Below, piece after piece: positions 970 to 14,815 of a DNA stretch of 64,000 nucleotides. The first letter of the stretch is position 1. Every line of letters starts with the position of its first letter. The stretch covers positions 900,727 to 964,726 of the forward strand of contig JAGWFT010000001.1 of the NCBI GenBank assembly GCA_028867755.1, in the 5' to 3' direction. The position numbers and the translations under genes are program-made. Source of the stretch: Nitrososphaerota archaeon (GTDB lineage Archaea; Thermoproteota; Nitrososphaeria; Nitrososphaerales; Nitrosopumilaceae). The notes under the pieces are model-generated. The model saw nothing but the letters and a program-made list of their open reading frames with translations, did not search any database and had not been told where the DNA came from.

Positions 970-3900
970 CTACTCAATAGAGATTTGTATCTTTTGACCA
1001 TCAAGATCCTCATCTTTGTAGCTTTTGGCCTTGTCTGAAAATTCAACTCTTTTTGCCCTCACAAGAAAGGCAAGCTCGGATTGTTTCTCCTTGACCATCT
1101 CAAGTGAGTCGTCATCAAGGCCTAGTATGTATGCAGCATCCAAGACATCAGTTGGGTTGTATGCACGCTCCTTTCTGAGCACCTGCAATCGTCTTGCAAT
1201 GTCTCGAACCAGCCCGCGTACCATCATCTCACGGTTTCTTGCCGTGTTGATAAATACAATGAGCGAATCACGCCTTGCCATGGCGTATCCATCTTGCTCT
1301 GCAAAATCTATTACAAAATCATCTCTGTCAAGCTCGATCTTGTTGTTGCCAAGATCAAATGTGTAGGACCCTTTTTTCAATAATGCATCTACAATTGCAT
1401 CTTGTGCAGTCTGCGAGAACTTTGCTACAAGGCTTCCCATGTCTTGCTTTGCCTTTGGCCCTATCTTCTTTCGTTCAAGTTCCACTTTTGGAACAATCGG
1501 TAATTTTGCATTCATTAGATTTGCTATTAGCTCAAGTCCTTCTGATTTTGGTAATTCCACTATACGGTATTTTTCTACGTTGAGCTGCTGTATCATCAGG
1601 TCTGACAAGGACTCTAGTTTTTGTTTTTGTGATGGTTCGACACATATGATTGCCTCATTTAGGGGCCATCTTCGTTTCAATTTTCCTTTCATTCTTGCTG
1701 CAGAAGAAATCGAGACTGCTTCTTTCATCAGGTCAAATGATTCTTCTACTTTATCACTGACAAGTGACTTCTGCGGGGCAGGAAAGTCTTCTAAGAGTAT
1801 GTTCTTTTTTTCAGAAAACATGGCAGAGTGCAAGTATTGAGTTGTAAATGGGCAAATAGGATGAATCAAAATATCTAGTGTTCTTAAGATCTCATACAGT
1901 GTGGCATAAATTGCAAGCCTTCGCTCTCGCAGTGAGTCGTCTTCTGCCCATAACTCTTCTCTTGTAATTGGGATGTAGACTTGGCTTACGGAATTTATGA
2001 TATAGTCGTCAATTGCTTTTGCTGCCTCGTGAAACCTGCACCTGTCTTGTGATTCAATCACAGAAGAAATTAGTTTTTGAAGTTTTGAGAGTATCCACAC
2101 CTCTGGCTCTTTTAGTAGGTTCTTGTCTTTTGCCCACTGGACTGTAAATGACTTGTCATACTTGTCATACTCACTATTTTGTTTTAGGTAGATGTGCAAG
2201 TGATATAGTGTGCTAAGAATCTGGTAGGGTCTTGAAACAAGCTCGTCTGTGCTAAAGTTAAGAGGCTCAATTGGACTTGCCTTCCACATGAAATACAGGC
2301 GAATCAAATCAACTGGATACTTGTTCATTAACTCTATTGCATCTAGTACGTTTCCCTGACTCTTGCTCATCTTGTTGCCGTTCTTGTCAAGAACATGTCC
2401 CTGAAAGAGAAATGACTTGAATGGTGCAACAGGAGCGTTGTTGAATATTACATTTTCAATTAATAGTGTGTATGCCCATCCTCTTGTCTGGTCTATTCCT
2501 TCGGTAAGAAATACTGCAGGGATGTACTCTTTGTAATCACTGTCGGCAAGCGATGCATATGGTGCGGCTCCGCTGTTGTGCCATGTATCCAAAACAAACT
2601 GCTCTCGCTCCATCTTTGATTTGCATTTGTTGCAGTTTATTCCAACCTTGTCTATCCATGGTCTGTGCAGCTCAAAGCTTGGCCCGTCGGGAAGATCTGA
2701 TGACGCCTTGATTATCTCGTCTCTTGAGAAGAACCACTTTTGGTTTCCACAGTTTTTGCAATTCCAAAGAGGAAGCGGGCATCCCCAGATGCGCTCCCTT
2801 GAGATGCACCATGGGTGCTTGTCCTTGATTATCTCTACAAATCTGTTTTTTGGGGGCTCAAAAAAATATTCTACATTTTCTGCAGCCTTTACTGCCTTGT
2901 CTTCTAATCTGTCAAGAAAATAAAAAAATCCCCTTCTTGCAAGCCAGAGAAGCTTGTGCTGTGATCTCCAGCACAATGGATACTGGTGCTTTATCTTTCC
3001 TATCTTCACAAGGGCGTTTTTTTCCTTGATAGAGTTTACTATCTTGTCGTCTGCATCGCGCACAAAGAGGCCCTCGTAGACGCCTGCATCTTTTGTAAAT
3101 TTTGCCTCGTCGTTTATAGGGTTAAAGATTGGTATCTTTCTTTTTGTTGCAATCTCAAAGTCCTCTTCGCCGTTTGCAGGAGACAGGTGTACAAGGCCGC
3201 TTCCTGTCTGTACATCTACAAAGTTTTCTGATACTATGATATGAAAATTAGGAAGCTTGGAGCGTTCCTTGAGCCCGGGGATCTCGTCTAGCAGCGGGTG
3301 GATGTATTTTTTTCCTTCAAGTGTTGCACCCTTTACCTCTTTTACAATATGGTGCTCCTCGACACGTGCCTCCTTTACGAACTCCTCTAGGCGGCTCTTG
3401 CCGACAACCCATGTCTCGTCGCCAACCTTTGCGTGGACATAATCCTCGTCTGGATTTACTCCAACCATTGTATCAGTGACCAGAGTGAACGGCATTGTAG
3501 TCCAGACAATAAGGTACAGGTCCTCGTCTTGCATCTTTACCTTGTAGTAGAGTGATGGGTCCTGGACGGTGTCATATCCTTGGTTTACTTCGGCATGACT
3601 CAGAGATGTCTGGCAGCTTGGGCAGTATGCCACCACCTTGTATGCTTCTGAGAGAATTCCACTCTCATGGGCTTTTTTTAGGTACTTCCATTCTCGTTCT
3701 ATGTACTCATCTTTGTATGTCCAGTATGCATTTTTTTGGTTAAACGACATTCCAAGTAATTTATCTGACTCTAGCCATCTCTCGTTGAATTGATGCACAA
3801 TCTTTTTGCACTCTAAAACAATTTTCTCCACTCCTGCAGATTCTATGACCTGGGACTTGCTTCCTGAGATGCCAAGCTCTTTTTCAGCCTGTAGCTCAAC

Positions 3901-8146: not shown

Positions 8147-9331
8147 ATGAGTCTAGCCCCGCAAGAACTAGAAAACAGTGCAAGTAGATTTGCTGCAGAA
8201 GCTATAAAGCTTGATTCTCAAGGTGCTAGAGGCATGGCAATTTCTAATTATCAGAGAGCAATAGAGTCTCTCACTAAACTGATTCAACTATACCCTGAAA
8301 ACAAACTAAATAGGGTATACCAGGAACGCGTTGCTGCATATCAGAATCGCATCAAGGCACTTCAATTGAATAATGTGGACATTGAACCAGTGGTAGATTC
8401 AAAAGCAAGCCCTGAAGAGCAAAAACAATCTCTTGCAAAAAATGATCTTGATTCATTGATAATGAAGGAAAAGCCAAACGTCAGCTGGGCTGAGGTGATA
8501 GGTCTTGAAGATGCAAAAAATGCATTGCGAGAATCAATTGTTTATCCTGCTAAACGACCTGACTTGTTTCCACTTGGATGGCCAAGAGGCATGTTGCTTT
8601 ATGGTCCGCCTGGCTGTGGCAAGACTGTACTAGCTGCTGCCACCGCAAGCGAGATTGATGGATATTTCATTAATGTTGATGCTGCATCAATGATGAGCAA
8701 ATGGCTCGGCGAAGCAGAAAAGAATGTAGCAAAATTATTTACCATGGCACGAGGAATGGCAGAAAAAGAAGGACTGCCAGTAATACTATTCATTGACGAA
8801 GTGGACTCACTTTTAGGAAACCGCAACAGCGAGATGGGCGGGGAGATTCGAGTAAAAAACCAATTCCTAACTGAGATGGATGGAATCAACGGAAAAGGAA
8901 AGGACCTCAAGCTCTATGTTATCGGAGCTACGAACAAACCTTGGAGCCTTGACTGGCCATTTCTTAGAAGATTCACAAAGAGAATCTATGTATCGCTTCC
9001 AACACTAGAGGCAAGAATTAATCTCTTTGAGCTTTACACTGCACCTCTTAAGAACGCAGGCGACGTAAAACCTGCCGAGCTTGCAAAACTTGCAGATGGA
9101 TACAGCGCAAGCGACATCAAGGACATCTGCCAGTCTGCGCAGCTAATGGTCGTAAATGACTTGTTCCACTCTCCAGAGTTCAAAGACCCTGTAGTAGGAG
9201 AAGAAAGGTCACAGCCTCGCCTTATTACAATGTCTGACTTTAAGGAAATCGTAACAAGAAGAAAGCCAAGTGTCAGCATGGAAATGATTCGCGCCTATTA
9301 CAAGTGGAGCGATCAGTTCAAAGCTCTGTAG
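8147..9331 (+). CDS. cdvC: Vps4/CdvC AAA+ ATPase with N-terminal MIT domain
   Basis: MIT helices (AAEAIKLDSQG...YQRAIE), Walker A GPPGCGKT, Walker B LFIDEVD, ATNKPWSLD and RRFTKRIYV. Confidence 0.93.
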   Translation: MSLAPQELENSASRFAAEAIKLDSQGARGMAISNYQRAIESLTKLIQLYPENKLNRVYQERVAAYQNRIKALQLNNVDIEPVVDSKASPEEQKQSLAKNDLDSLIMKEKPNVSWAEVIGLEDAKNALRESIVYPAKRPDLFPLGWPRGMLLYGPPGCGKTVLAAATASEIDGYFINVDAASMMSKWLGEAEKNVAKLFTMARGMAEKEGLPVILFIDEVDSLLGNRNSEMGGEIRVKNQFLTEMDGINGKGKDLKLYVIGATNKPWSLDWPFLRRFTKRIYVSLPTLEARINLFELYTAPLKNAGDVKPAELAKLADGYSASDIKDICQSAQLMVVNDLFHSPEFKDPVVGEERSQPRLITMSDFKEIVTRRKPSVSMEMIRAYYKWSDQFKAL

Positions 9332-9427: not shown

Positions 9428-10600
9428 TTGCTGAGGGTCTCAGAAATTCCAACAAAAAAAGCCAAACATGTAAACAAGTTTGGTAAGCTTGTTTTGGAAG
9501 ATGGCACTGTTTTTAACGGAATGGGTTTTGGTTATTCTACGACTGTTTCTGGCGAGGCAGTTTTCAATACTGGGATGACTGGCTACACTGAATCTCTAAC
9601 TGACCCGTCATACAGCGGGCAAATTCTTACCCTCACATATCCATTGATAGGAAACTATGGAATTCCAAATGTTTCAGAAAAAGACAAAGATGGTATCAAA
9701 AAATACCTAGAGTCTGATAAGATACAGGTGCGTGCACTTGTGGTACACGAGTTGTCACTTACCGCAAGCCACTGGAATCTTGCCATGACGCTAGATGAGT
9801 GGCTGTACAACGAGAAAATACCTGGGATTGCAGGAATTGATACAAGGGAGCTTACAACAAAACTTAGGACAAAAGGTGTCATGATGGCAATACTTGCCGT
9901 ATCTGAAAAAGAAATTGATGAGCAAGAACTAAAAAAACAACTTGCATCTGCCAAAAAGTATTCTGATGATGAATTTATGACTGCAGTATCCACCAAGGAG
10001 CCTCAGACATATGGTACGGAAAAAGAGTCTATTGTGGTAGTGGATACAGGTGTAAAAAATGCCATACTGCGAAATATAATAAAACTTGGGTACAAAGTAA
10101 TACGTGTTCCGTGGAACTATTCTGTAGAAAAGATTCTTGCGTATAACCCAAAAGGTATTGTAATATCAAATGGTCCTGGCGATCCGCTAAAATGTGCAGA
10201 GACCATGAACACTGCTAAAACATTGATTGACAAAAATATTCCAACACTTGGAATATGTCTTGGTGCGCAGATTCTTGGGCTTGCAGGTGGTGCTAGCACA
10301 TACAAGATAAAGTATGGCCATCGTGGACAAAACAAGTCATGCATCAATTTAGACACAAAGCAAGTTTATGTGACAAGCCAGAACCACGGATACTGCATAA
10401 ACCCAGACTCGCTAAAAAATACCAACTTCAAATTATGGTTTGAAAATACCGATGACAAGACAGTAGAAGGAATAAAGCACAAGGAAAAAAAGATAATTGC
10501 AGTCCAGTTTCATCCGGAAGCGTCACCTGGTCCTTTTGATTGTATGTTTATTTTTGAAGAGCTCAAGAAACTCATAGGGGAGGGCAATGCCAAAAAATGA
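9428..10600 (+). CDS. carA: Carbamoyl-phosphate synthase small (glutaminase) subunit
   Basis: GEAVFNTGMTGY, LTDPSYSGQ, SNGPGDP, catalytic LGICLG, SQNHGY and QFHPE. TTG start. Confidence 0.97.
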   Translation: MLRVSEIPTKKAKHVNKFGKLVLEDGTVFNGMGFGYSTTVSGEAVFNTGMTGYTESLTDPSYSGQILTLTYPLIGNYGIPNVSEKDKDGIKKYLESDKIQVRALVVHELSLTASHWNLAMTLDEWLYNEKIPGIAGIDTRELTTKLRTKGVMMAILAVSEKEIDEQELKKQLASAKKYSDDEFMTAVSTKEPQTYGTEKESIVVVDTGVKNAILRNIIKLGYKVIRVPWNYSVEKILAYNPKGIVISNGPGDPLKCAETMNTAKTLIDKNIPTLGICLGAQILGLAGGASTYKIKYGHRGQNKSCINLDTKQVYVTSQNHGYCINPDSLKNTNFKLWFENTDDKTVEGIKHKEKKIIAVQFHPEASPGPFDCMFIFEELKKLIGEGNAKK

Positions 10601-13600
10601 GTCGCTAAAAAAAATATTGGTTCTTGGCAGTGGGGCAATTAAAATCGGAGAAGCAGGCGAAAGTCACTAAATGACCGTCAATTCGACTACTCCGGTAGCC
10701 AGTGCCTCAAGGCCATCAAGGAAGAAGGGATACAGAGCATTCTTGTAAATCCAAACATCGCAACAATTCAGACTGACACAAGATTTGCAGATAAAGTATA
10801 TTCCATTCCAGTAAACCCACAGTACGTAGAGTCCATCATAGAGTCTGAAAGGCCAGACGGTCTGATGCTTGGGTTTGGAGGACAGACTGCCCTGAACTGT
10901 GGAGTAAAACTCGACGAGATGGGCATACTCAAAAAATATGATGTACGTGTACTTGGCACGCAGGTAGCAGGAATTCGTGCAACAGAAGACAGGCAGCTCT
11001 TCAAAGACGCCATGATAGAGTGTGGTGTTCCAGTATTGAAGAGCAGGACAGTTTACAACTTTGAGCAGGCAAAAGAGATTGCAAATGAACTTGGCTATCC
11101 TGTGATCATACGTGTTGCATATACGTTAGGTGGAAAAGGCGGAGGGGTTGCCCACAATGAAATTGAATTGCATGAAATTGTGACAAGGGGCCTTAATGCA
11201 AGTCTTGTTGGCCAGGTTCTAATCGAGGAATATGTTGGACACTGGAAGCAGATAGAGTATGAGGTCATGGCAGACTATCACGGAAACAATATCATAATTT
11301 GTAACATGGAAAATGTTCTTTCAATGAGGGTGCATACTGGTGACAATATCGTTGTGGCACCATCACAAACACTTGACAATTATGAATACCAGCTGTTAAG
11401 GTCTGCTGGACTGCGGGCAGCAAAACATGTTGGGATTGTTGGTGAATGCAACATCCAGTTTGCACTAGATGTTGATTCTGACAAGTATGTTGCAATAGAG
11501 ATGAACCCGAGACTCTCGCGTTCGTCTGCACTTGCAAGCAAGGCAACAGGATACCCGATAGCATACATGGCAGCAAAGATCGGGATGGGTTACACCCTGT
11601 CTGAGCTTGTAAATCGCATAACAAAAACCACCACTGCGTGCTTTGAGCCATCGCTTGACTATATAGTATGCAAGCATCCGCGATGGGATTTTAGCAAGTT
11701 TGAGCTTGCAAACCGAAGCCTTGGGCCTACGATGAAATCAGTAGGAGAGGTGATGGCAGTAGGAAGATGCTTTGAAGAATCATTTCAAAAGGCAATTCGA
11801 ATGCTGGAGATTGGAAATGATGGTCTTGTTGCAAACAGGAACCCTGACAAAGTTTACGATATCGAGGATCTAGAAGACAAGCTGCAAAAAGCAGATGACC
11901 GTATACTGTATCATGTTGCAGCTGCACTACGGCAGGGAATCTCAGTTGAGAGGATCTGCAAGCTTTCTGCAATTGACCCGTGGTTTATTGAAAAAATTCA
12001 AAACATTGTAGAGACAGAAAAAAATCTCAAAGAGTCCAAGTTTGAAAAAAATATTTTGCACAAGGCAAAAAAATTCGGGTTCTCAGACAAGCAGATTGGA
12101 AGACTGGTAGGAAAAGACGACATGGAGATTCGAAAGACAAGAAAAGAATTTGGAATCGTGCCAGTAGTAAAGCGAATAGACACACTTGCAGCAGAGTGGC
12201 CTGCAAAGACAAACTATCTCTATCTTACGTATGGCGGAACAACAAATGACTTTGAGGTAACCTCTGACAATGAAAAGATAGCAGTGCTTGGGGCAGGACC
12301 ATATCGCATTGGGAGCAGCGTAGAGTTTGACTGGGGAACTGTAAACATGGTCTGGGGTCTAAAAGAAAACGGCGTAAAAGAAGTCTCTGTGATAAACTGT
12401 AACCCGGAAACCGTATCAACAGACTATGACATTTGTGACAGGCTGTACTTTGAAGAGTTGACACTTGAGCGAGTCCTTGACATTGCAGAGTTTGAAAAAC
12501 TCACAGGCATTGTAACTGCAGTGGGAGGCCAGACTGCAAACAACCTTACGCCAAAGCTTGCAAAAAATGGAATCAAGATAATTGGAACGTCATACGAAGA
12601 CATTGACAGGGCAGAGAATAGGTCTCACTTTAGCAAGGTACTTGACGAGCTACACATAAGGCAGCCCCCATGGCAGGCATTCTCAAGTCTTGCTGATGCC
12701 AAGAAATTTGCGCTAAAGGTTGGCTATCCTGTTCTTGTAAGGCCGTCTTACGTGCTAAGTGGCGCTGCAATGAAGGTTGTCTGGTCCGAAGAGCAACTCA
12801 AAAGATATCTTGAGGAGGCAACCAATGTCTCGCCAGACTATCCTGTAGTGATTACAAAATTTATGCTAAATTCTCTTGAGGCCGAAGTGGATGGCGTATC
12901 TGATGGAAAAAATGTTGTAATCGGTGCTGTAATAGAACACATCGAAGGTGCAGGTGTTCACTCTGGAGACTCTATGATGTGCATCCCGCCCTGGAGTCTT
13001 TCAAACAAGGTGATTGAAACAATACTTGATTACACCAAAAAAATTGCCACTGCGTTTACGATAAAGGGGCCGTTTAATTTGCAATTTCTGATAAACTCTG
13101 ATCAGGTCTTTGTAATTGAGCTTAACATCAGGGCCTCGCGCTCTATGCCTTTTGTGTCAAAATTTGTCAGGATGAATCTTATCAATCTTGCAGCAAAGGC
13201 AGTACTTGGGAAAACTCTTCCTGTGGTTCCAAAAGACAGGTGGCGCAAGATACACAACTATGGAATCAAGGTACCACAGTTTTCATTTATGCAGCTTGAA
13301 GGCGCTGATGTCATACTTGGAGTAGAGATGCAGTCAACAGGAGAAGCCGCTTGCTTTGGCGAGAGCTTTTACGACGCACTTGCAAAGGGGCTAATATCAG
13401 TGGGATACTCTCTGCCAAAGGAAGGGTCTGTACTGATAACAGCAGGAGGCTCTGAGAACAAGGAAAAACTCTTGCAGACAGCACTCTTGCTCAAAAGTCT
13501 TGGATATACGATTCTTGCAACAGAGCACACTGCAGAATTTCTGTCAGACAAGAGGATAGGAGATGTACAAATAGTATACAAGATTAGCGAGCCTCAAAGA

Positions 13601-13852
13601 AAGCCAAACATTGCAGACATGTTGTACGAGCGCAAGATTGATTTTATAATAAATGTTCCAAGCACATCGACACTTGAAAAATATGTTGGAATGTTGTACG
13701 ACGAGTATCAGATTAGAAGAAAGGCAGTAGAGCTTGGTATACCAGTACTGATAACGACAGAGCTTGCAGACTCTTTTGCAAAGACACTAGAGTGGTTGAG
13801 GCACAATGAGACGACCAAAAAACCACTCGAGTCATACGAGTCCATTCAGTAG
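10587..13852 (+). CDS. carB: Carbamoyl-phosphate synthase large subunit, split by a 20-nt intron: join(10587..10661,10682..13852), 1081 aa
   Basis: ATG 10587 gives MPKNESLKKILVLGSGAIKIGEAGE, then a 20-nt insertion, then FDYSGSQCLKAIKEEG in frame with the 10865..13852 ORF (two ATP-grasp domains plus MGS domain). The joined product restores the conserved IGxAxEFDYSG motif. Confidence 0.93.
10662..10681 (+). other. Putative bulge-helix-bulge (BHB) mRNA intron in carB (AGUCACUAAAUGACCGUCAA)
   Basis: Central 4-bp helix GGCG(10656-59)/CGUC(10676-79), 3-nt bulges AAA(10660-62) and AAU(10680-82), intron stem GUCA/UGAC. Cutting after the 2nd nt of each bulge gives GGC GAA|UUC GAC, the exact frame restoration. 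Confidence 0.85.
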
Positions 13853-13858
13853 ACTTTT

Positions 13859-14815
13859 CTAAAATGAGTCGTCGATGCCGAGGCTTTTTCTTAGTATCTT
13901 TGCGACATTTCTTATTGTCACACTGCTAATGCCTGATGCTTTTGCAATCTTGTCCTGAGTAAACTTTTCCTCGTTTAGTACTCCAGATATGAACATGGCA
14001 GTTGCTGCAAGCGATATCGGGCTTTTGCCATCTGTTATTCCTTTTTCTTTTGCTCTGTAAAGTATGTCAAGTGCATCTCTTTTTGCTTTCTCGCTAGAAC
14101 CAATGGCTGTACCTATCTTTGATACAAACTCTGATGGGTCAAATGCATCTACTTGCAAGTCAAGTGCCTTGACAAATACTCTATAGTGTCTTGAAAGCTC
14201 CTTGACTGTTACGTTTCCTGCATGTGCAATATCGCTTAGAGCTCTTGGAACATTTGATTCCCTGCAAGAAATGCATAATGCAGAAAGAATCATTCCTGTT
14301 ATGGTTCTTCCTCTGATGATATTTTTTGTTAGTGCCTTTCTATACAGGTAAGCTGCTCTTTCAATTACAGCATCTGAGAGCTCAAGTTTTGATTGTATTG
14401 ATGTCATGACAGCAAATGCTGCACGTAAGTTTCTCTCAGTTGAGCTTGACTTGCTTCTGCTGTCCCACGTTCTTAATCTATTAAACGTGTACTTCATGTA
14501 ACTTGAAATTGAATTTCCTAATGCATCTCTTCCAGTGTTTCCAATCATTGTTGACAATCCCTTGTCGTGAATGGCAAGTGTAGAGGCCATTCCTGTTCTT
14601 GCATTGTTGTTATACTCTTCTGGAGTGAATGATTTTTGCTCAGGACCGGTATCTTCTACCTTGTCTGCTAGTACTGCACCACAACTTGCGCACAAGATCT
14701 CGCCTCGTATGTTGTCAGTAATCAGCGGTCCATGGGATTTTCTACCGTCTGCGCACGCATCCTTGGTGCCTTTTTGAACTATACACTTCTGTCCGGATTT
14801 GCTATTAACTATCAT
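13859..14815 (-). CDS. tfb: Transcription initiation factor IIB (TFB paralog)
   Basis: Zn ribbon (GEILCASCGAVL), B-reader/linker (HDKGLSTMIG, RLRTWDSR) and cyclin repeats (GRT, TDGKSP, GISSVTIRN). Confidence 0.93.
   Translation of the reverse strand: MIVNSKSGQKCIVQKGTKDACADGRKSHGPLITDNIRGEILCASCGAVLADKVEDTGPEQKSFTPEEYNNNARTGMASTLAIHDKGLSTMIGNTGRDALGNSISSYMKYTFNRLRTWDSRSKSSSTERNLRAAFAVMTSIQSKLELSDAVIERAAYLYRKALTKNIIRGRTITGMILSALCISCRESNVPRALSDIAHAGNVTVKELSRHYRVFVKALDLQVDAFDPSEFVSKIGTAIGSSEKAKRDALDILYRAKEKGITDGKSPISLAATAMFISGVLNEEKFTQDKIAKASGISSVTIRNVAKILRKSLGIDDSF

Follow-up and report, generated by a model that had tools for sequence, protein, structure and literature searches.

Pre-mRNA introns in cbf5 of Crenarchaeota were reportedly described in 2002 (Watanabe) and 2006 (Yoshinari), and non-canonical bulge-helix-bulge (BHB) introns of archaeal pre-tRNAs are said to have been treated in 2003 (Marck and Grosjean). 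In eukaryotes, the HAC1 and XBP1 transcripts are cut by IRE1 and ligated by Trl1 (yeast) or RtcB (animals). As of 2009, splicing had been confirmed for no archaeal protein gene but cbf5, and the cbf5 introns of Crenarchaeota collated at that time include none for Cenarchaeum or Nitrosopumilus (Yokobori 2009, PMC2738675). A paper of 2020 agrees in naming cbf5 alone, to which it adds a BHB intron in the 5' untranslated region (UTR) of HVO_1309 of Haloferax volcanii, validated in vivo and in vitro (PMC7714728). Relaxed BHB motifs are processed only by the (alpha-beta)2 and epsilon2 endonucleases (PMC5829648). The present analysis concerns a 20-nucleotide (nt) insert in carB, the gene of the large subunit of carbamoyl-phosphate synthase, within a window of 64,000 nt from a Nitrososphaerota archaeon (assembly GCA_028867755.1, contig JAGWFT010000001.1, positions 900,727 to 964,726 of the forward strand). 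Literature searches for introns or BHB motifs in connection with carB, carbamoyl, Nitrosopumilus or Nitrosotalea returned no description of this intron.

We read the 20 nt at 10662-10681, with a probability of about 0.9, as a BHB mini-intron in the carA-carB transcript that is excised by EndA, with ligation of the exons by RtcB; the action of these two enzymes and splicing in vivo are inferred. Removal of the hairpin from the mRNA, by whatever enzymes, is almost certainly required. The carB gene starts with an ATG at 10587 and overlaps the carA stop by 14 nt. The insert shifts the frame by +2 and brings in an in-frame TAA (10668-10670), and the downstream frame contains no ATG, GTG or TTG until codon 62 (10865). 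To a gene caller, the locus looks like a 27-aa stub and an open reading frame (ORF) without a start. When 10661 is joined to 10682, the product is a CarB of 1081 aa without an internal stop, which is aligned with intact 1080-aa CarBs over residues 1-1081 with a single gap overall. The predicted join GGCGAA/UUCGAC reads ...GEAGE/FDYSG... and lies inside this motif, which is invariant, in the CPSase_L_D1 (first pre-ATP-grasp) domain, and the predicted splice-junction peptide is IGEAGEFDYSGSQCLK.

According to the proposed mechanism, the pre-mRNA would fold into a 4-bp central helix with two opposite 3-nt bulges and an intron hairpin inside, and an imperfect outer exon-exon helix would keep both exons together. 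A hetero-oligomeric tRNA-splicing endonuclease composed of two EndA paralogues would cleave each bulge behind its second base, leaving a 2',3'-cyclic phosphate and a 5'-OH, and RtcB would then ligate GGCGAA to UUCGAC to yield the 1081-aa CarB. Unspliced mRNA would yield only a 27-aa peptide ending at the intron TAA.

The locus shares with the cbf5 pre-mRNA introns of Crenarchaeota the position of a short BHB-type intron inside a coding region, the combination of a relaxed motif with a hetero-oligomeric EndA in the lineage, and a patchy distribution with repeated loss and with genes mis-annotated as frameshifted. It differs from them in its host, a central metabolic enzyme instead of an RNA-modification protein, and in its occurrence in ammonia-oxidising Nitrososphaerales, the cbf5 gene of the same genome being uninterrupted; moreover, splicing of the cbf5 introns was demonstrated by experiment, whereas that of the carB intron is predicted from sequence comparison. 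As in HAC1 and XBP1, protein enzymes would excise a short structured intron from the coding sequence and thereby change the reading frame, but the nuclease is a different one, and the HAC1 and XBP1 system is under stress regulation. In common with HVO_1309, an mRNA is the (here predicted) substrate of the tRNA-splicing endonuclease; unlike that leader element, the carB element lies within the coding sequence, so that splicing would be needed for any protein to be made. Geometry, cut positions and expected enzymes correspond to those of the non-canonical BHB introns of archaeal pre-tRNAs (PMC5829648; PMC4090602), with the difference that the host is an mRNA and that the exonic bases of the motif also come under coding constraint.

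The evidence that carries this reading is comparative. In a first alignment (58 distinct sequences), the proposed structure was 96% paired: the intron stem was paired throughout (100%), with changes on both sides at three of its four pairs (UA/CG, CG/UA, GC/AU), the central helix to 97.8%, including the variants GGUG/CACC and GGUG/CACU, and the outer exon-exon helix to 93%. The observed covariation score was reached by none of 500 shuffles, and slid controls were paired to 21-50% in this alignment and to 14-57% over both alignments; a second alignment of 61 intron cores was 98.6% paired. Both helices and the exon-exon outer helix were recovered by RNAalifold without any hint. Among 76 distinct sequences, the 5' bulge reads A[A/G]A in 75 and the 3' bulge A[A/G/U]U in all, each being always 3 nt long, and cuts after the second bulge base restore the codon junction ...GE/FD... 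and the reading frame in 76/76. When the same geometry and cut rule were applied to the tRNA-Ile(GAU) intron of the same genome (central helix CUGA/UCAG, bulges UAA and AUA), the 37/38 junction was obtained. The background of strict BHB motifs in this genome amounts to ~9e-5 per position and length (11,993 matches). A chance origin of the BHB is taken to be excluded, decisively by the comparative evidence and also by the rarity of strict BHB motifs.

At the locus itself, the two 3-nt bulges lie on opposite strands with a 4-bp helix between them, as the definition of a BHB demands. The pairs of this helix (H) are G10656-C10679, G10657.U10678, C10658-G10677 and G10659-C10676 (three Watson-Crick pairs and one G.U). 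It is flanked on the intron side by a 4-bp helix (h'), fully paired across relatives with compensatory changes, and on the exon side, only in part, by a helix (h) that is formed by 10644-50 with 10690-96 and by three further consensus pairs and is set apart from the 3' bulge by unpaired bases. The minimum free energy (MFE) of 10640-10700 was -15.5 kcal/mol (z = -2.1), and 6 of 200 shuffles were as stable; the MFE fold retains the intron stem and shifts the register of the central helix, and the BHB fold has an energy of -12.0 kcal/mol. Taken alone, the single sequence is modest evidence, suggestive but not decisive.

The coordinates, pairs, bulges, loop, in-frame TAA and carB start given in the first-pass annotation all check out in the sequence. 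Its proposal of a BHB intron cut after the second bulge base is supported by same-site conservation, covarying helices and the 76/76 restored junctions, and the exact 1081-aa CarB that it derived agrees with the end-to-end alignment with intact homologues. The insertions for which it had proposed to align relatives are found at the same codon boundary, with compensatory changes that keep H and the 3-nt bulges. All features are collated below.

Coordinates of the carA-carB features and of the predicted BHB elements within the window
Feature	Coordinates	Strand	Basis or remark
carA, glutamine amidotransferase small subunit	9428..10600	+	ORF; Pfam CPSase_sm_chain + GATase, E ~1e-50
carB exon 1, 25 codons, MPKNESLKKILVLGSGAIKIGEAGE	10587..10661	+	ORF reading
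carB intron (predicted), 20 nt, AGTCACTAAATGACCGTCAA / AGUCACUAAAUGACCGUCAA	10662..10681	+	sequence reading, relatives, covariance model
carB exon 2, 1056 codons from FDYSGSQCLK	10682..13852	+	Pfam CPSase_L_D1, D2, D3, ATP-grasp, MGS domains
Outer exon-exon helix, 5' strand	10644..10650	+	pairs with 10690-10696; in MFE fold and RNAalifold consensus
Outer exon-exon helix, 3' strand	10690..10696	+	MFE fold, RNAalifold consensus, pairing count
Central helix H, 5' strand GGCG, in exon 1	10656..10659	+	pairs with 10676-10679
Central helix H, 3' strand CGUC, inside intron	10676..10679	+	pairing count, RNAalifold, second alignment
5' bulge AAA	10660..10662	+	predicted cut 10661/10662
3' bulge AAU	10680..10682	+	predicted cut 10681/10682
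Intron hairpin h', stem GUCA/UGAC, loop CUAAA	10663..10675	+	stem 10663-10666 with 10672-10675; TAA 10668-10670 within

At the DNA level, the carB gene is 89% identical to a metagenome-assembled genome (MAG) labelled Nitrosotalea sp. An insert at the identical codon boundary was present in 18/18 carB loci of the same genus (Nitrosotalea), and in further members of the genus; related genomes are to be counted here as kin and not as independent samples. For a family survey, 151 Nitrosopumilaceae genomes were queried with the N-terminus of an intronless relative. The 143 genomes that matched fell into 86 with an in-frame 21-nt insert with stop, 38 with a frame-shifting insert and 19 with a contiguous gene, so that 124 of them carry an insert; the sequences that were fetched agree with these classes. 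Of 15 other families of the order, 8 carry the insert and 7 lack it. A genome presumed to be that of Ca. Nitrosotalea devaniterrae Nd1 (G048) has an intron of 20 nt. The carriers include what we take to be Nitrososphaera viennensis (33 nt), N. gargensis (21 nt) and Nitrosocosmicus oleophilus (26 nt), as well as a record named Ca. Nitrosopumilus salarius BD31 (22 nt). Intronless genes prevail in three Nitrosopumilaceae genera of the survey and occur also in records named Nitrosopumilus and Nitrosopelagicus and in some Nitrososphaeraceae. Across the 76 distinct junctions, intron lengths of 20, 21, 22, 26, 29, 30, 33, 38 and 52 nt were recorded, with one further intron of 17 nt. This smallest one has a 3-bp stem and belongs to one family (L200, genome G029); the largest (38 and 52 nt) have long A/T-rich loops and come from Nitrososphaeraceae MAGs (L128, L130).

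Eight of the genomes used are flagged as unpublished (G010, G011, G017, G128, G129, G332, G403 and G435), and the conclusions are unchanged without them. L016 (from G011) forms one row in alignments A1 and A2; L005 (from G017) is among the 18 same-genus loci and, as a duplicate of L004, has no row in either alignment; G010, G128 and G129 make up 3 of the 86 in-frame family cases. On this distribution, the intron is considered to be old, being common to most families of the ammonia-oxidising Nitrososphaerales, and to have been lost cleanly in several lineages; the clean losses imply that it is dispensable.

Several signs of selection were found. The glycine codon that forms part of the helix is GGC in 56/58 intron-bearers as opposed to 2/24 intronless genes, ATC-GGA-GAA (ATCGGAGAA) is present in 50/58 intron-bearers, and TTC and TCC are used near the junction although they are rare codons in this carB. 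The helix-forming synonymous sites of the exons are thus judged to be frozen only where the intron is present. In intronless lineages (L037-L056, L116-L123), such as the records named Nitrosopumilus and Nitrosopelagicus, when compared with intron-bearing ones (L054-L106), the synonymous sites are relaxed, with GGA, GGG or GGT and with GAT TAT TCT. This relaxation around the old junction is regarded as the footprint of a lost RNA structure. Of the 25 codons of exon 1, 17 are variable within the genus, 15 of them synonymously only. Exon 1 is therefore taken to be translated, even though the DNA places it in a different frame from exon 2. An in-frame stop is contained in all 41 distinct introns of a length divisible by three (the five without a stop in the loop have TAA at codon 7), against an internal stop in 17/35 frame-shifting introns; read-through of unspliced carB mRNA therefore appears to be selected against.

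The cell needs CarB and encodes enzymes for splicing. In its assembly (99.95% complete), carB is single-copy, the next best match being 28% identical, and no carbamate kinase above the cut-off was found in the genome; carA is kept, as are two carbamoyltransferase genes (ATCase and OTCase). Two EndA-family proteins are encoded (C24:854713-854955 and C24:648880-649131), each with tRNA_int_endo_N and tRNA_int_endo domains, one of which is most similar to 3P1Z_B, the catalytic chain of the heterotetrameric enzyme of Aeropyrum pernix (E = 2e-43), together with one RtcB (594 bits). ARAGORN reported only 25 tRNAs for the genome, of which 6 have introns. It probably missed many tRNA genes because non-canonical introns interrupt them at unusual positions, in which case the cell would already depend on an endonuclease of broad specificity. 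The tRNA-Ile(GAU) gene (C35:94985-95074) has a 13-nt intron without an inner stem.

The first-pass annotation had claimed that arginine and pyrimidine precursor synthesis depends here on the tRNA-splicing machinery, and this agrees with the single carB, the lack of a detected carbamate kinase and the presence of two EndA paralogues and RtcB; an intact second carB, which it had named as a counter-argument, was not found in the genome, the 28% match being the next best. Its suggestion of a post-transcriptional switch found no support, and the intron has been lost cleanly in several lineages. A related idea is that the intron is kept as useful, in that it ties the supply of carbamoyl phosphate for arginine and pyrimidines to EndA/RtcB capacity and deliberately dead-ends unspliced mRNA. 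Pointers in this direction are that introns of in-frame length invariably contain a stop, that the A-rich loop is conserved and that the two halves are held together by an exon-exon helix; the idea is rated as unlikely.

Other explanations of the insert were weighed against splicing by EndA and RtcB. Removal of the hairpin from the mRNA by some other activity, for example a different nuclease/ligase pair, could draw on the imperfect outer helix; the conserved features, however, are precisely those that EndA reads (the 4-bp helix, the two opposite 3-nt bulges and the cuts at base 2), and the tRNA-Ile intron of the same genome shows the same geometry. We know of no other archaeal enzyme that excises and rejoins such elements, and this explanation is held to be very improbable. 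A hairpin with a stop right after the take-off codon is also superficially similar to the gap of phage T4 gene 60, where ribosomes pass over the insert without any cutting of RNA, and bypassing or frameshifting of this kind was considered for carB on account of the likeness. It is given a slightly smaller chance still: the insert lengths (17-52 nt) cover all three frame classes, none of 76 inserts ends in a codon identical with the take-off GAA or GAG (the final codons being CAA, CAG, TAA, AAA, TAT and others), so that a landing site is lacking, and the covarying helix between exon 1 and the 3' end of the intron has no role in bypassing.

Hardly credible, and less so than bypassing, is the separate synthesis of a 25-27 aa peptide and an N-terminally truncated CarB that would cooperate without splicing. 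In favour of it, exon 1 begins with a start codon and exon 2 forms a long ORF; the latter, however, offers no ATG, GTG or TTG before codon 62 (10865), the break falls within the invariant GEAGE/FDYSG motif, and both the RNA covariation and the frozen synonymous sites of the exons would be left unexplained. That carB is a pseudogene, or the 20 nt an assembly error, might be concluded from the stub and the start-less ORF that the gene caller returns; this is the least probable of the explanations and practically negligible, as the insert recurs in more than 100 independent assemblies, closed genomes among them, both exons are open and under constraint at the protein level, and the affected gene is the sole carB in an assembly of 99.95% completeness, in which carA, ATCase and OTCase are all retained. 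A mobile BHB intron with a homing endonuclease does not fit what the window contains, the 20-nt intron being without an ORF, its neighbours being a Vps4-like ATPase, carA and TFIIB, and one convincing copy being present in the genome.

Several observations weigh against splicing by EndA and RtcB. The MFE fold of the single sequence favours another register by 3.5 kcal/mol, and the helix beside the 3' bulge is imperfect, which makes the motif relaxed and not strict on that side. The relatives that were compared are kin, and the tallies given above overstate independence accordingly. In archaea, ribosomes can start on an mRNA that is still being transcribed, and only 75 nt separate the BHB from the carB start codon, which itself overlaps the carA stop; splicing would have to outrun the ribosomes. 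Finally, neither spliced RNA in metagenome contigs nor a circular intron nor a junction peptide in the protein collection was observed for this organism or its genus; a search of 5.8 billion proteins with the junction peptide of this organism gave nothing above 91% identity. A second junction-peptide query was taken from a genome presumed to be that of N. viennensis, and the 99% matches obtained with it (P0135, P0022) were discarded, as they lie on long DNA contigs of intronless Nitrososphaeraceae and do not represent a spliced product.

When metagenome contigs were searched for the spliced-junction DNA pattern, one match was obtained (L033, Ga0170475_126731779). It is a carA-carB contig of 4899 nt with the joined sequence ATCGGAGAAGCAGGCGAG/TTTGACTACTCC at 3438-3466 (-), and its exon codon signature is otherwise seen only in intron-bearing genes. 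A 1-nt frameshift is present near CarB residue 213, and the encoded CarB is 63-72% identical to the one studied here. The nearest genome, a member of the Nitrososphaeraceae with a 22-nt intron, shows 84% protein identity, and DNA matches to genomes reach at most 74%; an exact-protein look-up of the ORF returned no record. The contig could be a spliced transcript or a case of recent intron loss and was not used as evidence.

Further copies were sought in the same genome. A covariance model of the intron core (R1), run against the whole genome including the tRNA genes, gave the carB site as the only convincing one (E = 8e-8). When the whole genome was scanned for strict BHB motifs joining two ORFs, only carB and one MFS transporter gene passed; the scan depends on an inner stem of 4 bp and finds 0/6 of the ARAGORN tRNA introns, so that it is insensitive and a result of carB only is weak evidence. 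The MFS transporter (C35:186923-188149) was dismissed as a false positive, its 'intron' being conserved as coding sequence in relatives.

Under the reading as a BHB intron, carB would be the second archaeal gene with a coding-sequence intron after cbf5 in the searchable literature, and the intron would be ancient and widespread. The tRNA-splicing machinery would thus also be part of mRNA expression, in an essential metabolic gene of globally important ammonia-oxidising archaea. In most genomes of these archaea, carB is likely to be annotated as a pseudogene or as truncated, and metabolic reconstructions would then show apparent gaps in the synthesis of arginine and pyrimidines. Intron-bearing and intronless lineages, when compared, offer a natural experiment on intron persistence, intron loss and splicing in competition with coupled translation.

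The carAB pair is flanked by a gene of a Vps4/CdvC-like AAA ATPase with MIT, AAA and Vps4_C domains (8147-9331, +) and, on the other side, by a TFIIB gene (13859-14815, -). Elsewhere in the genome, the MFS-transporter-like ORF (C35:186923-188198, -; L203, L204) comprises 408 codons and has no ATG, GTG or TTG among the first 62 of them or upstream. In two relatives, the conserved peptide TKEIIP[RK]GNI extends further upstream and is preceded by a GGAG-like motif, an arrangement that points to initiation at a non-canonical codon, for instance ATC or ATT. A tRNA-like 3' end is located directly upstream of this ORF.

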